NCBI GenBank assembly: GCA_039187775.1
Contig: JBCCZL010000024.1
Coordinates: 1-32,674 of the forward strand
DNA length: 32,674 nt
Reading direction: 5' to 3'
DNA from: Myxococcota bacterium
Lineage (GTDB): Bacteria > Myxococcota_A > Polyangia > Polyangiales > JBCCZL01
Shown: in pieces, positions 475 through 28,047 of the stretch
How positions within the stretch are numbered: the stretch's first letter is position 1
How the letters are laid out: every line of letters begins with the position of its first letter
Notes under the pieces: generated by a model
The model's database searches: none
What the model saw: the letters and a program-made list of their open reading frames with translations, nothing else
What the model was told of the DNA's origin: nothing
Program-made: the position numbers and the translations under genes

Positions 475-1380
475 CTATGCCTGCGACACCTGGTTGCGAC
501 CGTTGCTCTTTGAACGGTAGAGCGCTTTGTCCGCAGCCTGAAACAGATCTTGGGTGCTTTCGATCGACGGTGCGGGGGCGCCTGCGACTCCCACGCTGAC
601 CGTCACCAGCAGAGGACGCCCGTCGTACTCGAAGGCGTACTCCGCGATCGAGGTCCGTAGGCGCTCGGCCACGATGAACGTCTGGGCCTTGGTAATGCCG
701 CGACAAAGGATCGCGAACTCCTCGCCTCCGACTCGGGCAAAGCAGTCTTCCTGCCGGACCACTCCGGACACCAGCTTGGCGACCGTGGCGAGGACGTAGT
801 CGCCGGCCGCGTGACCAAAGGTGTCGTTGGTTTGCTTAAAGTGGTCCAGATCAAAAAGGATCAGAGTGAGGGGTGAATCGTGACGCTCGGCGTAGGCCCA
901 CTCCTGATCGAGGCGATCGCGAAACGCTTTTTTGTTGTACGCACGGGTCAGTGCATCGCGGGCGGCCGCCTCGTAGAGGTTGCGTTGGAACTGCTCATCG
1001 AGTCGATCCTGGAGGGAGAACTTGAGTACGAACGTGGCTCCCACCTGAATCTTGTCGCCGTCGCGAAGGGGAACCGGCTTTTTGATGCGACGCCCATTGA
1101 CGAAAGTTCCGTTTTTAGAGTCCAGGTCTTCGACGTAGGTCACGTCGCCGTGGGTGTAGAGCCGGGCGTGCCGTCGAGATGCCCCTTCGTCATGGATGCT
1201 CAAATCGACGCGTTGGGATCGGCCGACCGTCAGCGCTTGATCCACGGGGTGCATCTCTCCGACCGAGGCACCGGCGATCACAATGACGAATGCCCGGGTC
1301 CGATCGGTGGTGTCGGTGAGCCGTTTTGCGCTGACGATCGCGGTAACTTCTTCCTGATCATCGGGGAATTCGCTCTCCAC
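475..1380 (-). CDS. FHA-domain diguanylate cyclase (FHA + GGDEF)
   Basis: 301-aa ORF with a GTG start. The FHA core is GRSQRVDLSIHDEGASRRHARLYTHGDVTYVEDLDSKNGTFVNGRRI. The GGDEF domain is RAYNKKAFRDRLDQEW...LILFDLDHFKQTND..GHAAGDYVL...RVGGEEFAIL, with a GGEEF active site and an RQED (RxxD) I-site five residues upstream. Confidence 0.85.
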   Translation of the reverse strand: MESEFPDDQEEVTAIVSAKRLTDTTDRTRAFVIVIAGASVGEMHPVDQALTVGRSQRVDLSIHDEGASRRHARLYTHGDVTYVEDLDSKNGTFVNGRRIKKPVPLRDGDKIQVGATFVLKFSLQDRLDEQFQRNLYEAAARDALTRAYNKKAFRDRLDQEWAYAERHDSPLTLILFDLDHFKQTNDTFGHAAGDYVLATVAKLVSGVVRQEDCFARVGGEEFAILCRGITKAQTFIVAERLRTSIAEYAFEYDGRPLLVTVSVGVAGAPAPSIESTQDLFQAADKALYRSKSNGRNQVSQA

Positions 1381-2834: not shown

Positions 2835-5342
2835 CTAGGGAACGACACTGGAGCAGGTCGCGTTGCATCGGTCGCCGCTCGTCGTGTTCCCGTCGTCGCA
2901 GACCTCGCCGCCGTCGAGGATGCCGTCGCCGCAGATCGGGACGGTGCAATCGAGGCGGCAAGCGGAGGGCGTATTGAATGCGCGAATCGTCAACGGCTGG
3001 GTGAGGTTTAGGCCGCTGAAGATGCTGCCTTCGTTCACCCAGCGCCAGTTCGAGATCCCCATCATGAACGATGGCGTGAGGGTGATCGTCCAGTTGCCGG
3101 GCAGGCTCAACCCTTGGGCGATGCCTCCATCGGTATTGGCGCGGAAGAACCAGCTGCCCGTAAACGTGCCGGCGCCGGTCTGTCGGAACTCTCCCGCATC
3201 GTCCGACAGAGACGCGATCGTCCCCGCGGGTACTCCCGTGAGCGTCATGTCGACCGAGGCGGTCGACTGGAAGATGCCCGAGGTGTCGAAGTCGATGCCG
3301 TGGACGAGGAAGAGACTGAGTGTCCCGGTGTTGAGGTCACGGTAAATAAAGATGTTGCTGAGCCCCGCCTGCTCAAACCCAGTGTGCGCGCTCGCCGACA
3401 CGAGGGCGTAGAACACCGTCGACGAGGTAAACCGCTGGAGCGGGTCGACCGCGGCGATCACTGTACCCCCCTGGCTGATTTCGATCGCCGGACGGTCGGT
3501 GTTCATCGCTCCGAGATCGCACTGCTCGCCCATTTCGACGATGCCATTGCCGCAGAAGTCGAGCTCGATGTCGCAGCTCGGAGTGCACCCGTCGCCGGGA
3601 AGCAGGTTGCCATCGTCGCAGGCTTCCATGCACTCGACGACCCCGTTGCCGCAAGCCTCGACCACGCAGGTGGCCGAACATCCATCGCAGGCGGTGGTGT
3701 TGCCGTCGTCGCAGGTCTCGCTGCACTCGACGACACTGTTGCCGCAGCCCTCGGTGGCGCAGGTCGCCGAACATCCATCGCAGTCGATGTTGTTCCCGTC
3801 ATCGCAGGTCTCGCCCGCGTCGATTCGCCCATCGCCGCAGCGCGGCGGAGGCGGTTCGTTGGTGCACGTCGGAGAGCAACCGTCGCCCGGGAGCAGATTT
3901 CCGTCGTCGCACTCCTCCATGCATTCGACGCGCGCATTTCCGCAGACCTCGCGGTCACACATCGGCGAACAGCCATCGCAGGCCACTGTATTGCCGTCGT
4001 CGCACACTTCGCCGGGGTCGACATTTCCGTCGCCGCAGCGGGGCGGAGGAGGCTCGATATTGCACATCGGGTCGCAGCCGTCGAGGGGTCGGTTGTTCCC
4101 GTCGTCGCACTGCTCCGAGCACTCCACGACCCGATTGCCGCATCGTTCGACCTGGCAGGCCACATCGCAGCCGTCGCACGCGGTGAGGTTTCCATCATCG
4201 CACTGCTCCCCCGGATCGATCCGGCCGTCGCCGCAGCGGGGGGCTTCGAGGATGCACATCGGATTGCAGCCGTCGCCTCCAACGTTGTTTCCGTCGTCGC
4301 ACTCCTCAAAGCATTCGAGGGTGCCGTTGCCGCAGGACTCGGTCGTGCAGATCGGCGAGCAGCCATCGCACGGGAAGTTGTTCCCATCGTCGCACTGCTC
4401 GGGCATCTCCAGCCGGCCGTTGCCGCAGCCAGCGAGCTCGATGGTGCACGTGCTCGAGCAACCGTCGTTGTCGATGAGGTTGCCGTCGTCGCACTGCTCG
4501 ATGCAATCGATTAGGCCATTGCCGCAGGACTCCGACGTGCAGAATGGCGAGCAGCCATCGCAGGGGAGATTGTTGCCGTCGTCACACATCTCGCCGGGCT
4601 CGACTCGCCCGTCGCCGCAGCGCCCCGCCTCGATCTCACACAGCGACGAGCACCCGTCGCCGTTGAGAAGGTTGCCGTCGTCGCATTCTTCTTCGCAGTC
4701 GATGATCCGATTGCCACAGGATTCGAGCGTGCACGCCGGCGAACATCCGTCGCAGGGTCGGTTCCCGCCGTCATCGCATTGCTCCCCGGGGTCGAGGACG
4801 CCATTGCCGCAGCCCGGGGCTTCGACTGTGCACGTGTCGCTGCACCCGTCGCCGCTCAGGAGGTTGCCGTCGTCGCAGCCCTCGAGGCAGTCGAGGACCC
4901 GGTTGCCGCATTCCTCGTTGATGCAGTCGCTCGAGCATCCGTCGCACGCTTCCAGGTTGCCGTCGTCGCACTGTTCGCCGGGATCGATACGGAAGTCCCC
5001 GCAGGCCGCGATTTCGAACTGGCAGGCCGACGAGCATCCATCGCCGTTGACCCGGTTGCCGTCGTCGCAGGCTTCCCCGGCGTCGAGGATCCCGTCGCCG
5101 CAGTTTTCGAGCTCCAGCCGGCATGCCATGTCGCAGCCGTCGCCGTTGTTCGTGTTCCCGTCGTCGCACTCTTCGCCTGCCTCGACGATGCCGTTGGGGC
5201 ACCCGACGGCGCTGTCGGTCCCCGAGTCGCGAACCGTGGCGTCGCGGGCAGTGCTATTGAGCGTCGACCGGCCGCACGCGGGCAGGAGGCCGAGGGCGAG
5301 AAACGCGACGGCCAGGGGGCCGACGAGGCGTCGAGAGAACAT
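2835..5342 (-). CDS. secreted lipoprotein with about 21 Myxococcus cysteine-rich repeats (Myxo_disulf_rpt / TIGR02232-type)
   Basis: 835 aa. The signal peptide plus lipobox is MFSRRLVGPLAVAFLALGLLPAC. About 21 units of roughly 36-40 aa of the form CGNGxxExGEECDDGNxxxGDGCSxxCxxE follow. The C-terminal region of about 230 aa is non-repeat and ends with one more repeat. Confidence 0.9.
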   Translation of the reverse strand: MFSRRLVGPLAVAFLALGLLPACGRSTLNSTARDATVRDSGTDSAVGCPNGIVEAGEECDDGNTNNGDGCDMACRLELENCGDGILDAGEACDDGNRVNGDGCSSACQFEIAACGDFRIDPGEQCDDGNLEACDGCSSDCINEECGNRVLDCLEGCDDGNLLSGDGCSDTCTVEAPGCGNGVLDPGEQCDDGGNRPCDGCSPACTLESCGNRIIDCEEECDDGNLLNGDGCSSLCEIEAGRCGDGRVEPGEMCDDGNNLPCDGCSPFCTSESCGNGLIDCIEQCDDGNLIDNDGCSSTCTIELAGCGNGRLEMPEQCDDGNNFPCDGCSPICTTESCGNGTLECFEECDDGNNVGGDGCNPMCILEAPRCGDGRIDPGEQCDDGNLTACDGCDVACQVERCGNRVVECSEQCDDGNNRPLDGCDPMCNIEPPPPRCGDGNVDPGEVCDDGNTVACDGCSPMCDREVCGNARVECMEECDDGNLLPGDGCSPTCTNEPPPPRCGDGRIDAGETCDDGNNIDCDGCSATCATEGCGNSVVECSETCDDGNTTACDGCSATCVVEACGNGVVECMEACDDGNLLPGDGCTPSCDIELDFCGNGIVEMGEQCDLGAMNTDRPAIEISQGGTVIAAVDPLQRFTSSTVFYALVSASAHTGFEQAGLSNIFIYRDLNTGTLSLFLVHGIDFDTSGIFQSTASVDMTLTGVPAGTIASLSDDAGEFRQTGAGTFTGSWFFRANTDGGIAQGLSLPGNWTITLTPSFMMGISNWRWVNEGSIFSGLNLTQPLTIRAFNTPSACRLDCTVPICGDGILDGGEVCDDGNTTSGDRCNATCSSVVP
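3520..5210. repeat. tandem DNA repeats of about 110-120 bp encoding the Cys-rich repeat array
   Basis: The periodic protein repeats are mirrored in the DNA (recurring gtcgtcgca / gccgttgccgca strings). They give rise to long spurious ORFs on the opposite strand (3114..4514, 3499..5394). Confidence 0.8.
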
Positions 5343-16535: not shown

Positions 16536-17063
16536 TCAGCGGTCCTCCACGAGGGCCGCGAGTTCTTCGACGTGAGCATCGTGTGCGCCAAGGGAGCGGA
16601 GGGCCTCGCGGAGCCGAAGAAGGTACTCGTCGTTGGGTCCGCTCGGCCCCTTGGACGCGCGAATGTGCGACGCCATCGTCTCTGGTGGGGCGGGGCCGAG
16701 ATAGTGCGGGTTTTCCGTGGTTGCGCGATAGATCAGGCCAGAGACCGTTTCGGCGGGGTCCTCGAGTTCGAGGGGAAGCCACTGCCGGTCGTAGCCGCCC
16801 TGCTCTCGATGATCGAGTTGGGCGAGCACCCCCTCGGCGTCTTCGCTCCCGACGAGGTACGCGGCGCCAACCGTCGAGTCTCCGGTGGCCTCGAGAAGCG
16901 TTACCACCCGCCCCGGGGCTTCGGGAACGCCTCGATGATCGGGCGAGCCCTGATAGAACCGCCGGACAAATCCGTGAAGAACCGCACGGCGGCGGTCGAC
17001 GAATGGAAAGTCGGGCCGCCAGATAAGCGAGCCGTAGCCAAAGATCCATACCGCCGCGTGCAC
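16536..17063 (-). CDS. chaC: ChaC-family gamma-glutamylcyclotransferase
   Basis: The VWIFGYGSLIWRP motif (YGSLxW) is followed by the HGFVRRF..Q core. Start taken at GTG 17063 (VHAAVWIFGYGSL). The ORF extends to 17264 with a hydrophobic, signal-like N-terminal extension that may or may not be translated. Confidence 0.65.
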   Translation of the reverse strand: MHAAVWIFGYGSLIWRPDFPFVDRRRAVLHGFVRRFYQGSPDHRGVPEAPGRVVTLLEATGDSTVGAAYLVGSEDAEGVLAQLDHREQGGYDRQWLPLELEDPAETVSGLIYRATTENPHYLGPAPPETMASHIRASKGPSGPNDEYLLRLREALRSLGAHDAHVEELAALVEDR

Positions 17064-17378
17064 CGTTCGGGGATACCTATGGGGGCGACTCTGTCCATCC
17101 TTTGTCGCGCGATCGCGTACTGCATGCGCTTGGGTGGACTGCTTAGGATCGCGTTGTGCAAGATGGGCTGCCGCGACTCCACTCAAGGCCACAAGCGTGA
17201 GCACGACCGAGAGGGTCGATAGCGTATGTAGTTCAAGAAGCACCTCCTTCCGGTGGCACTCCAAGCCCGTGCCATCGACGTTTCCCGACAGGTGGCGACC
17301 CGGCGATGCCAGGGCGCGTCCTCTTGGCGGTGTGGCGGTCGACCACTGCCAATCGGGCAGGCGTCCGACGGATCTCTG

Positions 17379-20300
17379 CTATAGCTCGTTGTCGGCGCGG
17401 AGCTTGGCGTCGACGCGGCGAATCAGCTCGAGGAGCTGCATCACGTGCTCGTGGAGAGCCTTGGAGTCGGCGAGATCTTGGTTGGCCCGCTGGACCAGGG
17501 GGAGGAGCGAGCGCTCGACCACCTGAAACTGCTGAGCGACGAGGGCACTGACGTCCTGGTTTGGAGCTGCCCCTTGAAGGCCAGGAGCGTCGAGGTGCAC
17601 TTCAACCTTCGGGTGCTGAAGCGCAATGAGGGCCTGCTCGAGTCGGGAGAGCTGGGGCGCGAGGGCTTCCACCAATGCGCTGTGCCCGTTGCCGTTCGGC
17701 TCGGCCGCGTGGGCTTCCTGTGCCTCGCGTCGCGCGGCTTCACGACGCTCGGCGTTTCGAACGGCTTCTAGCCGTTGTTCTTCGGCGCGTCGCTTGTCGG
17801 CCTCGGCCTGTGCCCGGGCCGAGTCCTCGACTGCCTTGCCGAGCGCCTCTCGAATGGAGGAGAGCTCCTGCCCGAGCACCGACAGCGTTCCCGTGACGCG
17901 GGTCACCGGGTCGTCCTCGGCGCCGCCCATGCTCTTTTGCCGGCGAAACTCGGCCTTGATCTCCTCCCAGCGCGCCCGCTGCTCATCGGTCATGCGGCCG
18001 CGCATTTCGGCGAGCTTAAGGAGATTCTGCTCCGCGCCGGTGGTGAGGGTCTGTGACTCCGAGGCGTAGTGGTCGTCGATGAGGCGCTCGAGCTCCTCGT
18101 CATTCATTGCCGAGACCACCTTTTCGGAGAGCTTGTTCATGTTCCGGTAGCTCCCCTGGAGCTTAAACGGGGGCTCGGTTCGAAAACTGTCCTCCTGGGA
18201 CGCCGACTCGATATACTTCAGGTTTACCGCGAGAAGCACGTCGCGGACTTTGAAGAGCCGCTCGAAGACCGCCGTCATCTCCGAGAGCTCCGCCCCCGAA
18301 TAGCCGTAGCTCAGATCGGTGGTCGCGACCTGCTCGCCCTCCGCCATCTTGATCACCTTGTACACATCGCCCTGCTCCCGCGTCGCGAGCGGGGAGAGCG
18401 CCGCGTTCGAGGTGAGCGAGTTCTCGATGTAGCTCAGCGCGAACTGCTGGTCCTTGCCCTCCAAGATATCGCCGAGATTGTAGGTGTCCGCGCGGTTCGC
18501 GAGCATGTCCGGGATCTGGAACTTATCGCCGCTCTCGGTGTACGGGTTTCCCGCCATCACCACGCAGAACTTCTTGCCGCGAAGGTCGTACGTTCGGGTC
18601 TTTCCTTTCCACACGCCCTCGACGCGACGCTGAGCGTCGCAAAGGCTGATGAATTTCTGAAGTAGCTCGGGATGGGTGTGCTGGATGTCGTCGAGATAGA
18701 GCATCACGTTGTTGCCCATCTCGAAGGCGAGGTTGATCTTCTCGACCTCTTGCCGAGCGGTCGCGTTCGGCGCCTCGCCGGGGTCGAGGGAATGCACCCC
18801 GTGCCCCAGCGAGGGACCGTTCACCTTCATGAACACGAGTCCGAGCCGGTTCGCGATGTACTCCATCAGCGTGGTCTTGCCGTAGCCCGGCGGCGAAATG
18901 AGGAGGAGGAGACCCATGAGATCGGTCCGCTTCCCCGCCCCCGCGGCGCCCATCTGCTTGGCGAGGTTGTCGCCGATCATCGGCAGATATACTTCGTTGA
19001 TGAGCCGGTTTCGCACAAACGAGCTCATCACTTTTGGCTTGTACTCCTCGAGTCGAAGCCGCTCGCGGTTGTCTTCGAGGAGCGAATGTCGAGCGTTTCG
19101 GTACTCGCGAAACGCCGGCGCGCGACGGTGGGCAAAGTCGCCGAGGCGCTCGAGGAACTCGTCGAGGCGAAGCTCCATCGTTCGGTTACTGATCCGCGGA
19201 TGTTGGCCGAGGAGCCCTTCGACCTTGATCGCCGTAAGCGCCTCGCTGAGATCGCGATCGAGACTCTCGGTCAAGAGGAGCCCCGCCGCCTCTTCGCTCG
19301 CATGGGCCACCGCCTGAACCTCTTCTCGGTCGCTCGCCCGCACGAACGCCTCCACCCACGCTCGGGTCAGCCGAATACGGGCTCCAAGATTGCCTCCGAG
19401 GCCCGCTCGGTCGTCGTCGAATGCCCGCCGGGTGCCCGCCACGTCGAGATGTGAAAGGAGCAGATCGCGGAGCTTGGCCGCATCGTGGCTCGTGACGAAG
19501 CGTGGTCGTTCCTCGCCGATCTCGTCGACCAGGTAGCGTCCGGCGAGAAGGCATTCCTCTTCGGAGGCTTCGACGCTGCGTTCTTGAAAGAACGCGTGAA
19601 TCTGGGTGCCAAGCTCCTCGCCAAACGCCGCGCGCTCGCCGGTGGGCCCGAACGCCTCGGTGAGTCGGCCGAGGCTGTATGCCCGTTGGTGGAGCTCCGC
19701 GCGAAGCGAGCCGTCGGAAAGGTGCGCCCAGTACAGGCAGCCAAGGGTCCGCGGCCCCGGCGGATAACGAAGGAGTGCCGCCGAGTCCCGGAGCACGAGA
19801 ATCTTCTCGAGGATCAGGGCCGCGTCGGCGTCGTGCACCCCTCGCTCGTAGCCCTCGTCGTAGCGATCTGCGGCCACCTTTCGGACGAGTCCGAGCAGGC
19901 CCCCGTCGTTTCGCTCCGCTTCGTGGAGGGCCGCAACGGAGAGCTGCTGGCTCTCCGCCTCCGCCGAAAAGAGGATGCTCGCGGCGAGATATTCGCCCCG
20001 ATACACCTCGCGGGTTTCGGAAATGTACTGCTGGTCCCAGAACGGCTCGGTCTTTCGAAAGTCCGCGTCCTCGACGAGTTCGTAGAAGTTCGTTCCCGTG
20101 AGGTGGAGCGCCATCTCGCCTTCGCGGGGCACGAGCGATAGCTCGAGGGGCTGGGTGTTCACGGTGAAGCGATGTTTGCCGAACTTGATGAGGTCTTCGC
20201 CTTCCTCGAAGAGCTCGAGCTTGTCCCGCATCGCCCGGAGCGAGTCCTGTCGGGCGGTCTTGAGGCGGGCTTCGACCTCCTCGGCCTTGACCGAGTCGTC

Positions 20301-22784
20301 GAGCTCGCGGAGCTGCTCCACGATTTGGCGGAGCTTCATCACCATCGGGTCGGACGCAAAGTAGGCGTTGAGCTCGTCCTGCTCCTTGAAGCTGCGCCAA
20401 CGCCGACCTACTCCTTCAAGAATTCGGTGGGCCGCGTTCATCAGGTTCTCTGCGCGGCGCTGGCGCTCATCGAGGAGGGCCTGCTTCTTCGAGCTGAACG
20501 CGTCGTAGATCTCTTCGCGTTTTTTGCCGATGTCTTCAAGGAACTCGTCGAAGTCGGAAAAGCGCGCCTCGAGCTCTTCGAGCTGCACCATCAACCGCGA
20601 GAGCTGCTCGTCGGTGCGTTCCGGCGTATCCGCGAGGGTGAGGCCGCTCGAAACGCTCTGCCCGAGGAGATTAAACTGTGCGGCGAACTCCGCTCGACCC
20701 TCCCGTCCGAGGAGCTCCTGCCGCTTGGCGGTGAGGGTGGCTCGGGTGCGGTTGAGCTGAGAGAAGACCTCGCTGATCGCCTCGAGAATTCGCGTACGTG
20801 CCGTGGCGTCGTCGACCTCGAGGCCGGCGACCACTTCGCTGATCACGTTGAGTCCTTCGCTTACCTTCTCGAGGCGTTCGATCAGCGGGTTGATGTCCGC
20901 GACTCGATCGACCTCGTCGGTCTTTTCGAGGAGGCCTTCGAGCTCGGCGATCACCGGCTTGAGCGCGTCGTCTCGGAGGAGAAACTGCACGCACTCTCGA
21001 CTGACGCGGTCGAAGTGCTTGACGACCTCGTCTTCGTTCTTCTGAATCGCGTCGAGGTCGATGTAGCGGATGTCCCGAAGGGTGATGAGATGACCCCGCT
21101 GGTGCCGAAGCGCGGTGAGGACGCCCATGTACGCGTCGACGCTCTGGAGCTCCTCGGTGTGCACCCGGCGCACGAGTTCGGTCTGTTCGGCTTCGGCCTT
21201 TTCCAGGGCCTCCCGAGCCCGGGTCTGCATCGCGAGGACCTTTTCGAACTCGTCGATCACGAGCTCGGCGGTGCGCTTGATCTCGTCCAGCACCGGCTTG
21301 AGCCCGACTTCGTCGTTGGCGAGCCAGTAATAGGCATCGAGGATGCGGTTGGTGGATTCGACGAGGTCGTCGTAGGTGTACCGCCGCGGGTCTTCCCGGT
21401 CGATGAGGCGCTTGATGCTGTAGGCATCGGAGATCCCTCGGACGAGCTCTGCGTTTCCGACCTTCGCGAGAAACGAGCCGTCGGTGGGCGCCGCCGCTGC
21501 GTGTTCCGCGCTGAAGAACGGCGTTCGCCAGATCTGCATCGGGTGGACCCGAGTCGGCTCGTCGCTCAGGGCGCGAAACACGAGCATTTGGCCGTCATCG
21601 AAGATCGAAAAGCCGTGGCACTGAATCGGGGTCTGGGCCTCTTTTCGAATCAGGTTGTACGGAAGAAGTTCGTAGCGGCCTTCGTCCTTCCGGTGGAACA
21701 CGTAGAGGACATCCTCGCCGTTCGGCGACTTGATGACCCGCTTCATCTGCAGGCCTTCGCGCTCCGCATCGAAGATCTTGTATTCGCCGGTTTGGAGGTA
21801 ATAGCCGCCGGGAAAGATGATTCCGTGGTCCTCGGGAAGCTGGCGGCAGGCTTCCCCGACCGCATCGATTCGATGCACCGACTGCTCGCGCGCGTTGAAG
21901 ACGAGGTAGCGAAACTTCGCCTCTCGGAACGGGAGGATTTTTAGGAGGAGCAGGCCTCCGAGCTTGGCGTAGTAGAACTCGCCGTCATCGAGGGTCTGAT
22001 TCGGGTCTTCGACCGGCTCCGCGTAGATGCCGCGGCCACTTTCGGTGTTGTTCTCGACTTTGATCGTGAGGTCGCCGCCGGTCGTCTCGATGAAGCACTC
22101 GTCGAGGATCGAAAGGTGGGGGAAGCGGCCGGTGACCTGATGGTCGCGGGTGGTTTGCGTCCACTCGAAGTCGTACGGCGGCGGCAGTACATGATCCCGA
22201 TCGCCGCGGCCGTCCATGTAGGAGAGCGTGCCGTCGGGGTGCACTTTCCAGCGGAAGACTTTGACCTCGTCGATAGTGGCCCCCGTCTGGAAAAGTGCGA
22301 GGAGCCGGGTGTCGGTCTTTCGAAGCTGAACGAGCCGGGTCTTGTCGTAATAGCGGTACAGTTCCTGGAACTCTTTGACGAACGCCGGGTCGGCGAGGAA
22401 CGCGTCGCCAGCCTCTCGATCGACTTCCCCAAAGTCGTAGGCGCCGTCGTTCACCGCAAACTTGTGAAGGCTGAACACGTCGGAGACATCGGTCTCCTTC
22501 TTGAGGCCTACGAACACGTTGTAGCCAAAGAGGACCTGGCCCTGGACGTTGAGGATGTCGCGCGGGACGCAGTTATTTTCGGTGCGGATGCGCTCGTTGG
22601 CGATGACCTCGAGTTCGGTGCCGCCGAAGACTTCTTTTCGCCGGGCGTTGAGCGCTTCGATCTGTTGCCCGAGGGCTTTCCCTTGGGCGATCAGCCGGTT
22701 GCGGATGACCTCGTAGTTGCCTCCTTCGAGGGAGCCTTCCGCACCTTCCGGGGTTTCTTCGCCCGCTGAGGCTTCGTCCGCCAT
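17379..22784 (-). CDS. giant (1801 aa) coiled-coil protein with a single AAA_5 (MoxR/McrB-like) ATPase module; function unknown
   Basis: It has a Walker A LISPPGYGKTTLMEYIANRLG (about residue 1297; nt about 18870-18900), a Walker B VMLYLDDIQ and a sensor-1-like FCVVMAGNPYTE. There is a globular N-terminal region of about 450 aa. Long Glu/Leu/Arg/Ala-rich predicted coiled coils flank the ATPase. The start lies 9 nt downstream of the flotillin stop. Confidence 0.85.
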   Translation of the reverse strand: MADEASAGEETPEGAEGSLEGGNYEVIRNRLIAQGKALGQQIEALNARRKEVFGGTELEVIANERIRTENNCVPRDILNVQGQVLFGYNVFVGLKKETDVSDVFSLHKFAVNDGAYDFGEVDREAGDAFLADPAFVKEFQELYRYYDKTRLVQLRKTDTRLLALFQTGATIDEVKVFRWKVHPDGTLSYMDGRGDRDHVLPPPYDFEWTQTTRDHQVTGRFPHLSILDECFIETTGGDLTIKVENNTESGRGIYAEPVEDPNQTLDDGEFYYAKLGGLLLLKILPFREAKFRYLVFNAREQSVHRIDAVGEACRQLPEDHGIIFPGGYYLQTGEYKIFDAEREGLQMKRVIKSPNGEDVLYVFHRKDEGRYELLPYNLIRKEAQTPIQCHGFSIFDDGQMLVFRALSDEPTRVHPMQIWRTPFFSAEHAAAAPTDGSFLAKVGNAELVRGISDAYSIKRLIDREDPRRYTYDDLVESTNRILDAYYWLANDEVGLKPVLDEIKRTAELVIDEFEKVLAMQTRAREALEKAEAEQTELVRRVHTEELQSVDAYMGVLTALRHQRGHLITLRDIRYIDLDAIQKNEDEVVKHFDRVSRECVQFLLRDDALKPVIAELEGLLEKTDEVDRVADINPLIERLEKVSEGLNVISEVVAGLEVDDATARTRILEAISEVFSQLNRTRATLTAKRQELLGREGRAEFAAQFNLLGQSVSSGLTLADTPERTDEQLSRLMVQLEELEARFSDFDEFLEDIGKKREEIYDAFSSKKQALLDERQRRAENLMNAAHRILEGVGRRWRSFKEQDELNAYFASDPMVMKLRQIVEQLRELDDSVKAEEVEARLKTARQDSLRAMRDKLELFEEGEDLIKFGKHRFTVNTQPLELSLVPREGEMALHLTGTNFYELVEDADFRKTEPFWDQQYISETREVYRGEYLAASILFSAEAESQQLSVAALHEAERNDGGLLGLVRKVAADRYDEGYERGVHDADAALILEKILVLRDSAALLRYPPGPRTLGCLYWAHLSDGSLRAELHQRAYSLGRLTEAFGPTGERAAFGEELGTQIHAFFQERSVEASEEECLLAGRYLVDEIGEERPRFVTSHDAAKLRDLLLSHLDVAGTRRAFDDDRAGLGGNLGARIRLTRAWVEAFVRASDREEVQAVAHASEEAAGLLLTESLDRDLSEALTAIKVEGLLGQHPRISNRTMELRLDEFLERLGDFAHRRAPAFREYRNARHSLLEDNRERLRLEEYKPKVMSSFVRNRLINEVYLPMIGDNLAKQMGAAGAGKRTDLMGLLLLISPPGYGKTTLMEYIANRLGLVFMKVNGPSLGHGVHSLDPGEAPNATARQEVEKINLAFEMGNNVMLYLDDIQHTHPELLQKFISLCDAQRRVEGVWKGKTRTYDLRGKKFCVVMAGNPYTESGDKFQIPDMLANRADTYNLGDILEGKDQQFALSYIENSLTSNAALSPLATREQGDVYKVIKMAEGEQVATTDLSYGYSGAELSEMTAVFERLFKVRDVLLAVNLKYIESASQEDSFRTEPPFKLQGSYRNMNKLSEKVVSAMNDEELERLIDDHYASESQTLTTGAEQNLLKLAEMRGRMTDEQRARWEEIKAEFRRQKSMGGAEDDPVTRVTGTLSVLGQELSSIREALGKAVEDSARAQAEADKRRAEEQRLEAVRNAERREAARREAQEAHAAEPNGNGHSALVEALAPQLSRLEQALIALQHPKVEVHLDAPGLQGAAPNQDVSALVAQQFQVVERSLLPLVQRANQDLADSKALHEHVMQLLELIRRVDAKLRADNEL

Positions 22785-22793
22785 CGGACCCGG

Positions 22794-24920
22794 CTATTCG
22801 AGGCCGAGGTGTTTGGCCTGGTCGGCGAGGGCTTGGAGTTTGCCCTTGGTGGTCTCGTCGGCGCCGCTCATCAGCTTCGCAAGGATCGCGCTGACGCTGA
22901 GATTGCGGACCGTCTCCGAACTGATCGCCGGGCGAGACAGCACCTCGACCACATCGGCAGGAAGGGACTTGTCGCCGTTGAGGTACTCGGCGAGGAGCGT
23001 TTGCACGGTGTCGCTGTTGTGCACCATGCCGTCGGCGGACTGTCCGAGCGACACTGCGTTGACGAACCGGTCGAAGAACTCGCCGTCGCCGCCCACGATG
23101 TTGATCTTCGCGTTGGTCATCGCCTGGCTCATCACCTTGGCCTGATGCTCGGCGATCTCGGTGCGCGCATCGATGTGGCGGAGGTCGACTTCCTTTTCCT
23201 TCTCGAGACGGATCCGGAACTCTTCGTGTTCGCGGCCGACCCCATCGAGGGCCTTCATCGCGTTGGCCTTTTCGGCAAGGCCTGCCGCTTCGGCGCTGAG
23301 CTTCTTTTCGATGGCGAGCGCTTCGGCGAGGCCGGTCTGCTCGATGGCTTTCGCGTGCGCCTCTTTGATACGCGCTTCGGCCAACCCCTGGGCCTCCTGG
23401 CCGGTGGCCTCCGCGTTCATCTTCTCGCGGACCACCGCGGCGGTGGCGAGGCCTTCCTTTTCAGTGATCGCCGCGGCCGCATCGCGCACCCGGACCTCGG
23501 CGAGGCCCTCTTTTTCGATGGCGGCGGCATTCGCTTCCTTCACCCGGACCTGAGCGAGGCCCTGGGCGGCGGCTTCGGCCTGGGTCCCTTCGGCGAGGCG
23601 CATCTTCGCGCGCGCTTCTTTGTCGGACGCTTCGAGGTCGGCCTCGGCGATGGTGAGCGTTTCTTTGGCCTTGAGCCGCGAGACCTGCTCCTGCGCTTCC
23701 GCGGCCTTCACCGTCTTGAGCAGTTCCTCTTCCGCCTTCGCTTCGGCGGTGATGACGGTGGCTTCTTTCTTTCGCTTCGCGTCGGCCACGAGCCGGAGGT
23801 CTTTGATGCGCTCTTCTTCTTCGGCCACGGTCTTGTCGACGGCCACCCGGGAGCGAACGACGTCGGCGATCTCTTTCTTCTGGACCTCGACCTCCTTGTT
23901 CTTGGAGATCGTCTGGAGTTCGGTTTCCCGGTGTCGAGAAATCTCTTCGAGGGCGCGCGCTTTTTCGACCCGCTCGGTTTCGACGCCGATTTCGCGCTCT
24001 CGGTTTTTCTGGGCGACGGCGATGCCGCGCTGCTTCGCTTCGTCGGCGACGGCGATCTCTTCTTCGTGCTTCTGCCGAAGCATCATGGTGCGCTTGTGCT
24101 CTTCGTCCCGGACCCGGATCGCCTCGTTTTCTTCGCGGGCCTGCGCGCTCACGATCTCTTTGTTCTTCTTGGCTTCCGCTTCGGCGCGGCGCTGGTCGAA
24201 CTGAAAGATCGCTTCGTCGGCGGTGAGGTTTTGGCTGCCGATCTCCATGCGCTCTTTCTGGCGAAGCTCGTTGGTATGGACGTTCTGCGCCGCGGTGATC
24301 TCGGTGATCTTTCGAATGCCCTGGGAGTCGAGGATGTTCTGCGCGTCGAGTTTTTCGACCGGGGTCTGTTCGAGGTAGTCGATCGCGGCGTCGTTGAGGG
24401 TGTAACCGTCGAGATCATCTCCGATGACGCCGACGATGTTCTTCCGGAACTCGGATCGCTTGGTGTAGAGATCGGCAAAGTCAAACTGCTTGCCGACCGT
24501 CTTGAGGGCCTCTGAGAACTTGGCGCTAAACAGGTTGTCGATGGTTTGGGGGTCGGAGGCACGCTGGCAGCCGATAAGTCGGGCGACCTTGAGTACGTCT
24601 TCGGGCTCCTTGTTGACCTGGACAAAGAACGTGACGCGGATGTCAGCGCGAATGTTGTCTCGGCAAATGAGTCCGTCGGTGCCTCGGCGGTCGATGTCGA
24701 TCGTCTTGACCGAGATGTCCATGATCTCCGCGCGATGAACGATCGGAAAGACGACGGTTCCCGTGAAGGTCGTTTCGATCTTGCCGCGCATTTTGTTGAC
24801 GATGAGCGCTCGGCCCTGATCCACCTTGCGGTAGAAGCGTGCGAGCATCGCGAGGATGCCCATCAGGACAACGACGACGAAGCCGACTCCGACGAGGACA
24901 GGTAAAATATCTTCCAGCAT
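22794..24920 (-). CDS. flotillin-family SPFH (band 7) protein, YqiK/FloT-like
   Basis: 708 aa. It has an N-terminal TM (LPVLVGVGFVVVVLMGILAMLA) and an SPFH domain. A long EA-rich flotillin-type coiled-coil region (EAEAKKNKEIVSAQAREENEAIR..., AEAKAEEELLKTVKAAEAQEQ...) and a C-terminal tail follow. Confidence 0.85.
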   Translation of the reverse strand: MLEDILPVLVGVGFVVVVLMGILAMLARFYRKVDQGRALIVNKMRGKIETTFTGTVVFPIVHRAEIMDISVKTIDIDRRGTDGLICRDNIRADIRVTFFVQVNKEPEDVLKVARLIGCQRASDPQTIDNLFSAKFSEALKTVGKQFDFADLYTKRSEFRKNIVGVIGDDLDGYTLNDAAIDYLEQTPVEKLDAQNILDSQGIRKITEITAAQNVHTNELRQKERMEIGSQNLTADEAIFQFDQRRAEAEAKKNKEIVSAQAREENEAIRVRDEEHKRTMMLRQKHEEEIAVADEAKQRGIAVAQKNREREIGVETERVEKARALEEISRHRETELQTISKNKEVEVQKKEIADVVRSRVAVDKTVAEEEERIKDLRLVADAKRKKEATVITAEAKAEEELLKTVKAAEAQEQVSRLKAKETLTIAEADLEASDKEARAKMRLAEGTQAEAAAQGLAQVRVKEANAAAIEKEGLAEVRVRDAAAAITEKEGLATAAVVREKMNAEATGQEAQGLAEARIKEAHAKAIEQTGLAEALAIEKKLSAEAAGLAEKANAMKALDGVGREHEEFRIRLEKEKEVDLRHIDARTEIAEHQAKVMSQAMTNAKINIVGGDGEFFDRFVNAVSLGQSADGMVHNSDTVQTLLAEYLNGDKSLPADVVEVLSRPAISSETVRNLSVSAILAKLMSGADETTKGKLQALADQAKHLGLE

Positions 24921-25051
24921 GGCCCACTCCCGCGCGCGAGGTGGCCGTCAAGGCCCCCTCCAAAATCGCCGCCTGATCTACACGATCGCAGAGGGGGTGT
25001 CACCGCCGATGCCGATGAACTCGCGAAGGGCGCGCCGCGGGGAACCCTGAA

Positions 25052-25849
25052 TTACTTGGACTTCTCGTGGAGGATCGAGTCCATCGCTTCGACCTCGAAG
25101 GTGTCGCTCGCTTCGTCGTAGTCCACGAGGAGCACCCGCGCGTTGGGGTCGAGGGCGGAGTCCGCGCGGACCCGGAGAAGGCTGCCCGAACCGTCGTCCA
25201 GCGTGGCCTGGCCTTTTTCTCCGGGGTCGGCGTGCACCCGGACTCGGGCGACCTTTCCAACGAGAGTTCGCTTGCTTGGCGCTTTGTTCGAGACGAAGAG
25301 CTTGCCGATCGGCCGGCTGGTGAGGGACGCGAGAGGAAGGGCTACGAACAGGGAGGCGAAAAGGACGGTGAGTTGGCCGGCGATATCCGGTCCGGGAATG
25401 AGCGGGGCGGCGAACTTCGCCGCGTAGTAACAAACCAGCCAGCCAAACAGGAACAGCAAGCTGAGCGAGATGGTGATCGGGGCCTTTCGCAGACTGAACA
25501 CGCCTAGAAGCGCGGCGAGGGCCCCTTCGCCGCCGCCCGCGCCGCCGCCGCCGCCGTCCCCTGCCTCGCCGACGTCGGCCGCACCGGTGAGGTCGTCGCC
25601 AACATCTCCGTCCCCGAAGTCTCCCTCCCCAAGGTCGATGTCTGCGTCGCCCATGCCCGCATCGCCCGCGCCCGCGTCGCCCACGCCGGCATCTCCCACG
25701 TCCGCGTCGGCTCCGAGGTCGAGATCGAGCGCGCCGAGCATGACAAAGAGCCAATACATCAGCGACAGGAGGATCCCGGCGGTGAAGACCACCGTCGGAA
25801 AGCCAAACGCAATGGCGACAAACTCGTCCACGGGGCACCACCCTCGCAC
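25052..25849 (-). CDS. NfeD-like / YqiJ-like inner-membrane protein (OB-fold C-terminus) with an acidic Gly/Asp/Ala-rich low-complexity insert
   Basis: 265 aa with two TM segments, a GDAGVGDAGAGDAGMGDADIDLGEGDFGDGDVGDD linker and a C-terminal NfeD OB-fold-like region TLVGKVARVRVHADPGEKGQATLDDGSGSLLRVRADS...LLVDYDEASDTFEVE. It lies 131 nt upstream of flotillin, with a GGGAG SD-like sequence before the flotillin ATG. Confidence 0.75.
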   Translation of the reverse strand: MRGWCPVDEFVAIAFGFPTVVFTAGILLSLMYWLFVMLGALDLDLGADADVGDAGVGDAGAGDAGMGDADIDLGEGDFGDGDVGDDLTGAADVGEAGDGGGGGAGGGEGALAALLGVFSLRKAPITISLSLLFLFGWLVCYYAAKFAAPLIPGPDIAGQLTVLFASLFVALPLASLTSRPIGKLFVSNKAPSKRTLVGKVARVRVHADPGEKGQATLDDGSGSLLRVRADSALDPNARVLLVDYDEASDTFEVEAMDSILHEKSK

Positions 25850-27056: not shown

Positions 27057-27899
27057 CTAAAACCGATAGCTCAGACCGACGCTTAGCTCGGGGGTAAAGC
27101 CGTAGCTCTCGATCGCGTCTTCGGTTTCTCGTTCGACCTGTGCGGCGAGCTCGTCGTTTTCGAGCTCGACGTTCACATCCGCCGAAACCGTGTGGGTCCA
27201 GCCGACGGCGAGGCGAAGTCCAAGATGGTCGCCGAGCGCGATTCGCCAACCGATCTGTGCGCTCACCGCGTGAAGACGAACCGAAATCGGAACTGCCGCA
27301 AGCCCAAGGTTGGGGGCGCCGGGGACAAAGGCCTCTGCAAAGGTGTTCGGGTCGATGTCGCTTCCCCCGCCGATCAGGGTGTAGCCGCCGCCGATTTCAA
27401 AGCCGCCGCCGAGCGAGAGTCCCACCATCCACCGGACGTTCCAAAACCCGCTGTCGGTCAGCTCGTTGACGATCGGGTCGTAGTCATCCGGGATCGCGCC
27501 AGTGTCGCCGAGAACGCCGGTCACCACGCCGACGAAGGAGCTCGGGACATAGCCGACCCCGAAGCGCCCGAACAACGCAAACGGAGTGGTGAGCTGTGCT
27601 TCCAGCGAGGGTCCCAGCGGAACGGAAAGACGCGCGCCGAGTTCGAAGTCCCAACCGGAGCCGGAAGAAGACGACGAAGCCGCGGGCGCGGAGGACGATA
27701 TGGCGGAGGACGATGTGGCGGAGGACGATGTGGCGGAGGACGATGTGGCGGAGGACGATGTGGCGGATGAAGCCGCTGGTGCGGAGAGCTCACCGCCGGC
27801 TTCGGAGGTTTGCGCCTGCACTTCGCGGGCCGAGATTGATGACCCCATCGAAACGCACAGAGCGAAACAAACAAACGCGAACGTTTTCCGAGTTGTCAA
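27057..27899 (-). CDS. outer-membrane beta-barrel protein with Ser/Ala/Thr tandem repeat
   Basis: It ends ...ELSVGLSYRF with a C-terminal Phe, the OMP signature, and has alternating Gly/aromatic beta-strand patterns. The putative signal is MTTRKTFAFVCFALCVSMGSSISA from TTG 27899 (the ORF extends to 28001). The (SSSAT)5 repeat is encoded by 15-bp tandem repeats. Confidence 0.6.
   Translation of the reverse strand: MTTRKTFAFVCFALCVSMGSSISAREVQAQTSEAGGELSAPAASSATSSSATSSSATSSSATSSSAISSSAPAASSSSSGSGWDFELGARLSVPLGPSLEAQLTTPFALFGRFGVGYVPSSFVGVVTGVLGDTGAIPDDYDPIVNELTDSGFWNVRWMVGLSLGGGFEIGGGYTLIGGGSDIDPNTFAEAFVPGAPNLGLAAVPISVRLHAVSAQIGWRIALGDHLGLRLAVGWTHTVSADVNVELENDELAAQVERETEDAIESYGFTPELSVGLSYRF
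27688..27768. repeat. 15-bp tandem repeat (GCGGAGGACGATGTG) x5, in-frame within the OMP gene
   Basis: There are five near-perfect tandem copies. The first is the variant ...GATATG, followed by a degenerate copy. They encode SSSAT units on the minus strand. Confidence 0.8.
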
Positions 27900-28047
27900 C
27901 GGAACCCTGCCTTTCAGCACAGAAACCGATTCGGCCACTTTTCTACCGCCGCCGATAACGAGTCTGTAGGGTGAGTTGCCTCTCACCGGCAGGGGGTTCA
28001 TCTATTTTTTGCTAACCCCGTCGAAGCAGGAGCTCTAGTGTGGTCAC

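Follow-up and report, generated by a model that had tools for sequence, protein, structure and literature searches.

Operons in which a flotillin gene stands between genes for a small membrane protein and a large ATPase have been described before. Ravi et al. (mSystems 2024, preprint 2020) reported an operon encoding a CesT/Tir-like protein (YjfI/DUF2170), PspA, a band-7/flotillin protein, a YqiJ/YuaF protein with three transmembrane (TM) segments and a novel AAA+ ATPase with a coiled coil and a beta-propeller, with PLD added in some Proteobacteria (PMC11237479). They also described widespread 'abbreviated operons' that lack PspA and keep the flotillin, YqiJ/YuaF and sometimes the ATPase, and they proposed ATP-dependent membrane remodelling, drawing a parallel to Vps4/ESCRT-III (PMC11237479). 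Here we analysed a stretch of 32,674 bp, hereafter the window, which is a whole contig (64% GC) of a metagenome-assembled genome (MAG) from Myxococcota. Three minus-strand open reading frames (ORFs) lie in it in the order YqiJ-like protein, flotillin, ATPase, and this cassette is a Myxococcota member of the known system, which has been described by computation and partly studied by genetics. Both the full and the abbreviated forms of the operon class were reproduced in the loci collected here; the likeness to that class (example: the ANH61663.1 neighbourhood) is one of described gene content. The operon is treated by Ravi et al. in a short computational account, without a structure model, a linkage count or an analysis of the ATPase motifs (PMC11237479).

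The bacABCDEF operon ('biofilm-associated cluster') of Pseudomonas aeruginosa, PA3732-PA3727 or PA14_16140-16200, encodes the three protein families of the window in unchanged order (PMC10948618). BacA is a DUF2170 protein with a crystal structure and BacB is PspA (PMC10948618, PMC13086221); BacC (PA14_16160) is a short NfeD protein and BacD (PA14_16180) the SPFH protein PaFlo3 (PMC13086221). BacE (PA14_16190) is annotated as 'ATPase involved in DNA repair', and BacF is PA14_16200. Transcripts were detected by reverse-transcription PCR (RT-PCR) across every junction from bacA to bacF, bacD-bacE included; mutation of bacA raised BacB to BacF 6- to 13-fold, and the authors proposed that the operon has a sigma-54 promoter (PMC10948618). 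Six-gene cassettes of the bac type were found in other Pseudomonas genomes (L048, L054, L055 and L074). The published bacD/bacE forward primer exactly matches the SPFH tail 'EGDFFN' in L074, and the reverse primer codes PKNNCI, which is the N-terminal TENNC(I) signature of the ATPase family. The ATPase of the window shares about 50% identity with the Pseudomonas ATPases. Unlike the P. aeruginosa operon, the window has no bacA (DUF2170), no bacB (PspA) and no downstream gene of the operon.

An earlier reading of the window from its sequence only had proposed an undescribed membrane-microdomain machine. The novelty did not survive, since the neighbourhood is already in PMC11237479 and corresponds to bacC-bacD-bacE of P. 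aeruginosa. The same reading had taken the genes for an operon; in P. aeruginosa, RT-PCR on the homologous genes has detected co-transcription over the flotillin-ATPase junction (PMC10948618).

The order of the first two genes is shared with the yqiJ-yqiK pair of Escherichia coli and the yuaF-floT pair of Bacillus subtilis; the flotillin of the window is homologous to YqiK and the protein encoded upstream of it resembles YqiJ and YuaF. By contrast, yqiK of E. coli is followed by sibD/ibsD and not by an ATPase gene, and the window flotillin is 155 amino acids longer than YqiK, at 25% identity. A likeness of principle exists to FtsH-HflK/C, in which an inner-membrane SPFH scaffold likewise has an AAA+ ATPase as its partner. 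FtsH is a membrane-anchored AAA protease of the classical clade that is not encoded beside hflKC, and HflK/C faces the periplasm. The window ATPase differs from FtsH in being soluble, in lacking a protease domain and in having a pre-sensor-1 hairpin, and its partner SPFH domain is apparently cytoplasmic.

The locus and the conservation of its gene order

The cassette comprises the following features, listed in the direction of transcription:

25052..25849, minus strand: YqiJ/YuaF-type short NfeD-like protein, 265 amino acids, GTG start
24921..25051, minus strand: spacer between the YqiJ-like gene and the flotillin gene, 131 nt
22794..24920, minus strand: YqiK-type flotillin (SPFH), 708 amino acids, ATG start
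22785..22793, minus strand: junction between the flotillin stop and the ATPase start, 9 nt
17379..22784, minus strand: soluble AAA+ ATPase, 1801 amino acids, ATG start

The ORF listing, the translations and the spacer sequences bore out the three co-directional, closely linked genes and the gaps first noted between them. GC3 was 0.79-0.81 in all three frames and GC2 was low, as expected of real genes in a contig of 64% GC. The SD-like sequence that had been noted ahead of the flotillin start was located as GGGAG, 6 nt upstream of the ATG and within the 131-nt spacer. No unusual RNA structure was found in this spacer (RNA fold z-score 0.35), and a scan of the minus strand found no promoter-like or terminator-like sites.

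The ATPase family is large, with more than 6200 close homologues that fall into about 311 clusters at 50% identity (E<1e-30). Its members occur in at least 584 species genomes (one genome per species), including Pseudomonas, relatives of Streptomyces and myxobacteria. Gene order was scored in the best 80 loci among these genomes with hidden Markov models built from the families of the window:

Actinomycetota: 28 of 80 loci
Myxococcota: 24 of 80 loci
Gammaproteobacteria: 21 of 80 loci
Unclassified or oddly labelled MAGs: 3 of 80 loci
Acidobacteriota: 2 of 80 loci
Planctomycetota: 1 of 80 loci
Zetaproteobacteria: 1 of 80 loci

In 77 of the 80 loci an SPFH gene was upstream of the ATPase gene and in the same orientation, and a YqiJ-like gene was upstream of the SPFH gene in 72, spread over six phyla. 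Most exceptions were contig ends (L025, L059, L064, L071, L079 and probably L006). The gap between the SPFH and ATPase genes had a median of 32 nt over 75 loci, and overlaps of 4 nt were seen in many Actinomycetota loci. The triad was also present, with its order kept, on a metagenome contig with 36-38% GC whose ATPase is only 27% identical to that of the window. The linkage of the three genes is far beyond chance, because order and strand are kept in 72 of 80 loci across six phyla and again in the 27%-identical branch. The ATPase family thus adjoins SPFH/NfeD genes well outside the window, and the view of the ATPase as a true partner to the SPFH/NfeD pair within one conserved unit was borne out by this synteny and by the tight junctions.

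One locus labelled 'uncultured Clostridia bacterium' (L004, CAZQBW010000056.1) carried an ATPase 57% identical to that of the window, as close as those of the Myxococcota loci (51-58%), which suggests an error of binning or labelling.

Public records do not agree on a name for the ATPase family: 'DNA repair ATPase', 'SpoVK/Ycf46/Vps4 family AAA+-type ATPase', 'MoxR-like ATPase', 'AAA family ATPase' and 'hypothetical protein' are all in use, and no paper was found in support of any of them. At NCBI the 1801-amino-acid protein of the window is called 'DNA repair ATPase' and the other two proteins 'hypothetical protein'. Taken at its word, the first name would make the protein a DNA repair or chromosome-partition ATPase with an incidental flotillin neighbourhood. 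It is echoed by the Pfam description of DUF3686 ('ATPase involved in DNA repair') and by weak matches to RuvB_N and RuvB on the P-loop. However, these matches extend over about 45 P-loop residues, and their score of 22 bits falls short of the cut-offs, which are 27 for RuvB_N in Pfam and 282-299 in NCBIfam. Pfam detected no DNA-binding or nuclease domain in the ATPase, no repair gene is conserved nearby, and no paper linking the ATPase to repair was found. The gene is kept beside the genes of two membrane proteins in six phyla, and we give a role in DNA repair almost no credence.

The YqiJ-like protein and the flotillin

The YqiJ-like gene probably starts at the GTG at 25831 and not at 25849; the later start (V7, giving 259 amino acids) is the one in the NCBI call and in the alignment of homologues. 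The protein consists of TM1, an acidic linker rich in Gly and Asp, TM2, TM3 and a C-terminal beta (OB-like) domain. The three TM-like segments belong to an architecture that is conserved in the family alignment, and the C-terminal domain contains a conserved beta-type motif. Residues 42-112, the linker, contain 20 D+E and 25 G and not a single K or R. Within it, a tandem repeat with a period of 15/30 nt (25644..25709, minus strand) codes GDAG(V/A/M) units. Linker length and sequence vary widely among homologues; because of the variation in length, the linker may have evolved by slippage of its repeat.

Scans of the full-length 265-amino-acid protein against Pfam, NCBIfam and PADLOC gave no match even at E 10. 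When the C-terminal 82 amino acids were scanned, NfeD (PF01957) scored 13 bits (E 0.13), below the cut-off of 29.1, and the protein of the window did not pass the threshold for PF01957, PF21001 or PF07290. Among homologues, YqiJ_N (PF21001) was detected in 5 of 32 and YqiJ_OB (PF07290) in 1 of 32, with best E-values of 5e-4 and 3.5e-4. The family profile matched E. coli YqiJ in hhalign with a probability of 91% (E 9e-7) over 136 columns that cover TM2-TM3 and the C-terminal domain. The match to the soluble domain of B. subtilis YuaF (2K14) was weak (E 0.22) but fell in the right region. The NfeD/YqiJ-like identity assigned to this protein was therefore sustained at profile level and by gene position, although it reached no Pfam threshold, and on these two grounds the label 'YqiJ/NfeD-like' appears reasonable.

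The flotillin has an N-terminal TM segment at about residues 5-28 (one TM-like segment within 1-33), followed by RFYRK. By the positive-inside rule, this arrangement would place the bulk of the protein in the cytoplasm. The SPFH domain spans residues ~32-200 and is followed by a coiled-coil or 'flotillin' region (~240-560) rich in A, E, K and R, which together make up 0.58 of residues 241-560. The C-terminal tail is conserved and includes NIVGGDGEFFDRF.

Database scans of the full-length flotillin were blank as well: Pfam, NCBIfam and PADLOC gave no match to the 708 amino acids even at E 10, PDB sequence searches with the sequence and with the family profile gave none, and the Pfam Flot domain matched neither the full length nor fragments. 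The doubt that these blanks cast on the name 'flotillin' was dispelled by fragment scans and by comparison with E. coli. Residues 1-260 alone matched Band_7 (PF01145) at E 1.8e-10 and 41.6 bits (cut-off 23.6), BLASTP against E. coli YqiK gave E 7e-30 at 25% identity over 458 amino acids, and the family profile matched YqiK in hhalign at 99.7% (E 2e-26), so that the flotillin assignment stands. Homologues carry the public names 'YqiK' or 'SPFH domain-containing'. The long A/E-rich region appears to lower the full-length Band_7 score, because the 1-260 fragment scores well over threshold. Many homologues of the flotillin also have no precomputed Pfam match, which points to a systematic annotation gap in this SPFH subfamily. 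The stretch that codes the A/E-rich coiled coil on the minus strand coincides with the AT skew peak of the contig (-0.436 at 23001-24000), and this peak is an effect of protein composition and not a replication signal.

The ATPase and its probable role

The ATPase has no TM-like segment. It can be divided into four parts:

21225..22784, minus strand: residues 1-520, DUF3686 (Pfam and AlphaFold2)
20148..21224, minus strand: residues ~521-879, helical coiled-coil-like region (composition and DUF7902)
19157..20147, minus strand: residues 880-1210, mostly helical globular domain with beta hairpins (AlphaFold2)
17379..19156, minus strand: residues 1211-1801, AAA+ part (Pfam, AlphaFold2 and family alignment)

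DUF3686 (PF12458) matched residues 38-486 at E 1e-201, and this N-terminal region of about 450 amino acids, at first thought to hold no recognisable motif, is thus covered by a known family. AlphaFold2 modelled residues 1-520 with a pLDDT of 86 and a pTM of 0.84, as an N-terminal helix (23-53), about 26 beta strands (59-420) and helices (426-519) that are bundled with the first helix. Residues 59-420 are predicted to be beta-propeller-like. The family signature RTENNCVPRD lies at residues 66-75. The coiled-coil-like region contains a match to DUF7902 (PF25472) at residues 606-690 (E 1.7e-26). Coiled-coil-like composition is limited to about 446 of the 1801 residues, about a quarter; the impression of an almost entirely coiled-coil protein was thus wrong, with globular models obtained for 23-520 and 880-1210. 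For residues ~900-1200 the absence of a recognisable motif was confirmed, as the 880-1210 block matched no Pfam family and no PDB fold (the Foldseek matches of the 880-1720 model all fell on the AAA+ part). It was, however, predicted as a confident globular fold (pLDDT 86-97, against 82 for the 880-1720 model overall). Homologues of ~1600-1950 amino acids have the same composition of DUF3686, DUF7902 and a single C-terminal AAA+ module.

The part from 1211 to 1801 contains two long helices, an AAA+ core at ~1290-1440, a lid, a conserved helical region with EPPFKLQGSYRNMNK at residues 1537-1551, and a C-terminal helical tail. Walker A (GYGKTT), Walker B (LDDIQ) and AGNP were present at residues 1300, 1364 and 1411, as first read from the sequence. 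Walker A, the DD of Walker B, the sensor-1 residue N1413 and R1431 were invariant across 29 sequences of 33-57% identity, and this invariance argues for an active ATPase. In the AlphaFold2 model, parts of whose core have a confidence of 50-85, a beta hairpin precedes sensor 1 at ~1387-1400 and the stretch between beta2 and alpha2 (1323-1340) forms only a loop. The module probably belongs to the pre-sensor-1-hairpin part of the AAA+ tree. AAA_5 (PF07728) scored 31.0 bits (cut-off 22) over 125 of 139 model positions and AAA (PF00004) 31.3 bits (cut-off 21.2) over 73 of 131. Foldseek matches to the AAA+ part were weak (E>=7e-4) and spread over ClpB, RuvB, NorQ, CbbQ and MCM, and the PDB sequence search with the ATPase gave a match limited to the P-loop. 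Of the earlier assignment to a MoxR/McrB class of AAA_5, the family match held above its cut-off, whereas the class is left unsettled by the equal score of PF00004 and the spread of the fold matches.

We consider the cassette to be the three-gene core, or 'abbreviated' form, of this widespread membrane-associated system and its ATPase to be, probably, an ATP-driven remodeller in the cytoplasm that would act on flotillin and/or PspA assemblies in envelope stress; we hold this reading with moderate confidence because of the gene linkage, the precedents of FtsH-HflK/C and Vps4-ESCRT-III and the proposal of Ravi et al. The soluble domains of the flotillin and the YqiJ-like protein would both lie in the cytoplasm by the positive-inside rule. 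The flotillin and its YqiJ-like partner would build a scaffold (an SPFH cage or a raft) on the membrane's inner face, as in the solved structures of the HflK/C and QmcA-YbbJ complexes, and the ATPase would dock on this scaffold through its propeller/bundle end. It would then spend ATP to assemble, remodel or dismantle the scaffold or its clients. The clients may include PspA polymers of the ESCRT-III type; the PspA gene adjoins the cassette in Gammaproteobacteria and presumably lies elsewhere in the genome of the window. The cassette would thereby serve envelope-stress protection or membrane maintenance and not DNA repair.

A narrower version of this proposal makes the DUF3686 ATPase the bacterial counterpart of Vps4, which would dock on cytoplasmic flotillin cages and disassemble or recycle PspA and/or flotillin polymers in membrane repair; we regard it as a tentative idea and rather doubtful. 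The AAA+ ATPase gene is linked to PspA, a member of the ESCRT-III superfamily, in Gammaproteobacteria. By contrast with this parallel, the ATPase is homologous to Vps4 only in the AAA+ fold; it lacks an MIT domain, greatly exceeds Vps4 in size and belongs to a different clade. According to a 2025 review, a Vps4-like ATPase appears to be absent in bacteria (PMC7619361). The ATPase family is large, adjoins the flotillin-NfeD pair and, in Gammaproteobacteria, PspA as well, and is the obvious candidate for the missing energy source in the assembly and dismantling of bacterial flotillin and PspA polymers (the lack of a known Vps4-like ATPase for bacterial ESCRT-III proteins is noted in PMC7619361). 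If the ATPase were indeed the counterpart of Vps4, bacteria would gain an energy-dependent cycle of membrane remodelling that current reviews say they lack. The window itself contributes one further data point and a correction to the annotation; the wider interest lies in the ATPase family as a whole.

The AAA+ fold also bears on another role, in which the ATPase would be a membrane-proximal unfoldase or disaggregase for clients held in a flotillin microdomain, like FtsH in the HflK/C cage. Its core is nearest to ClpB, RuvB and NorQ among solved structures, and the pre-sensor-1 hairpin is typical of that superclade. FtsH-HflK/C is a precedent for such an arrangement, and the beta-propeller could bind a substrate or an adaptor. 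Flotillin microdomains of Staphylococcus aureus have been reported to confine unfolded proteins (PMC11222466). However, the core cassette has neither a protease domain nor a protease gene, only 7 of the 80 loci have a rhomboid gene after that of the ATPase, and none of the fold matches was better than E 7e-4. We think an unfoldase or disaggregase unlikely and favour remodelling of flotillin and/or PspA assemblies.

Several observations weigh against the remodelling proposal. Our literature search found no experimental study of the ATPase itself in any organism, and no physical interaction of the ATPase with flotillin or PspA has been reported. Deletion of paFlo3 reduced biofilm of P. aeruginosa by only ~20% (PMC13086221), indicating that phenotypes may be mild or conditional. 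Genes for PspA, DUF2170 and PLD were not found in the window by tblastn, which makes the PspA link indirect for this locus. The unsettled AAA+ clade means that a remodeller or unfoldase role is not readable from close relatives, and the DD (not DE) Walker B may indicate slow, switch-like hydrolysis and not a processive motor. Two loci were true exceptions to the linkage, as neither partner gene accompanied the ATPase in L051 and the SPFH gene of L008 was 6.3 kb away.

A search for literature on DUF3686, or on 'DNA repair ATPase' together with flotillin, found no paper.

Accessory genes and the neighbourhood of the cassette

DUF2170 and PspA genes preceded the triad on the same strand in 14 gammaproteobacterial loci, and in 8 of these extended loci a PLDc_2 gene followed it. 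The Myxococcota and Actinomycetota loci, the window included, had the three-gene core only.

A rhomboid-family intramembrane protease gene overlapped or directly followed the ATPase stop in seven gammaproteobacterial loci (L036, L055, L057, L060, L062, L064 and L074). This accessory gene is absent from the passages of Ravi et al. consulted here (PMC11237479). In L009, L012, L015, L018, L019 and L022 a small Ion_trans_2 (potassium-channel-like) gene lay upstream of the YqiJ-like gene, at a distance of about 100 nt; it was on the opposite strand in 5 of these 6 Myxococcota loci, and the association is lineage-specific.

The neighbours of the cassette in the window encode ChaC, a molybdopterin oxidoreductase, YaaA, an ECF sigma factor, a rhodanese, a DUF2490 protein, an FHA-GGDEF protein and a DUF4215 repeat protein; no defence gene was among them. 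These genes bear on the idea of a membrane-organised anti-phage or abortive-infection module, in which the ATPase would sense and PLD or the membrane components would act as effectors. Defence systems often contain large coiled-coil ATPases and PLD-family genes, the ATPase family is patchy among phyla, and PADLOC gave a weak match to LmuB (E 1.5e-6). PaFlo3 to PaFlo9 have been suggested to be horizontally acquired (PMC13086221). However, the LmuB match was confined to residues 454-876, the coiled-coil region, and the SPFH and YqiJ-like proteins had no PADLOC match. The accessory genes that are conserved in other loci encode PspA, DUF2170, rhomboid and ion channel proteins, and the P. aeruginosa operon has been linked with sigma-54 and with phenotypes in biofilm formation and virulence (PMC10948618). 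A defence function is thus very improbable, and the defence-island idea of the sequence-only reading gained no support, the surroundings being housekeeping genes. An LmuB identity for the ATPase was rejected, the match being judged a coiled-coil similarity only.

The ChaC-like gamma-glutamylcyclotransferase gene (16536-17264, minus strand) comes 114 nt after the ATPase gene in the same orientation, and the scan detected no terminator-like site in the gap. The ChaC-like gene is not a conserved neighbour in other loci. On the other side of the cassette, the ORFs between 25898 and 28467 matched no Pfam family. One of them (27057-28001), on the minus strand like the cassette and about 1.2 kb upstream, codes 314 amino acids with a signal-like N-terminus. 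It contains a near-perfect 15-nt tandem repeat at 27688-27767 (5.3 copies, 98% match) that codes SSATS units. Two further genes, unremarkable for Myxococcota, have no connection with the cassette: the FHA-GGDEF diguanylate cyclase gene (475-1380, minus strand) and the gene for an 835-amino-acid protein with 13 cysteine-rich DUF4215 repeats (2835-5342, minus strand).

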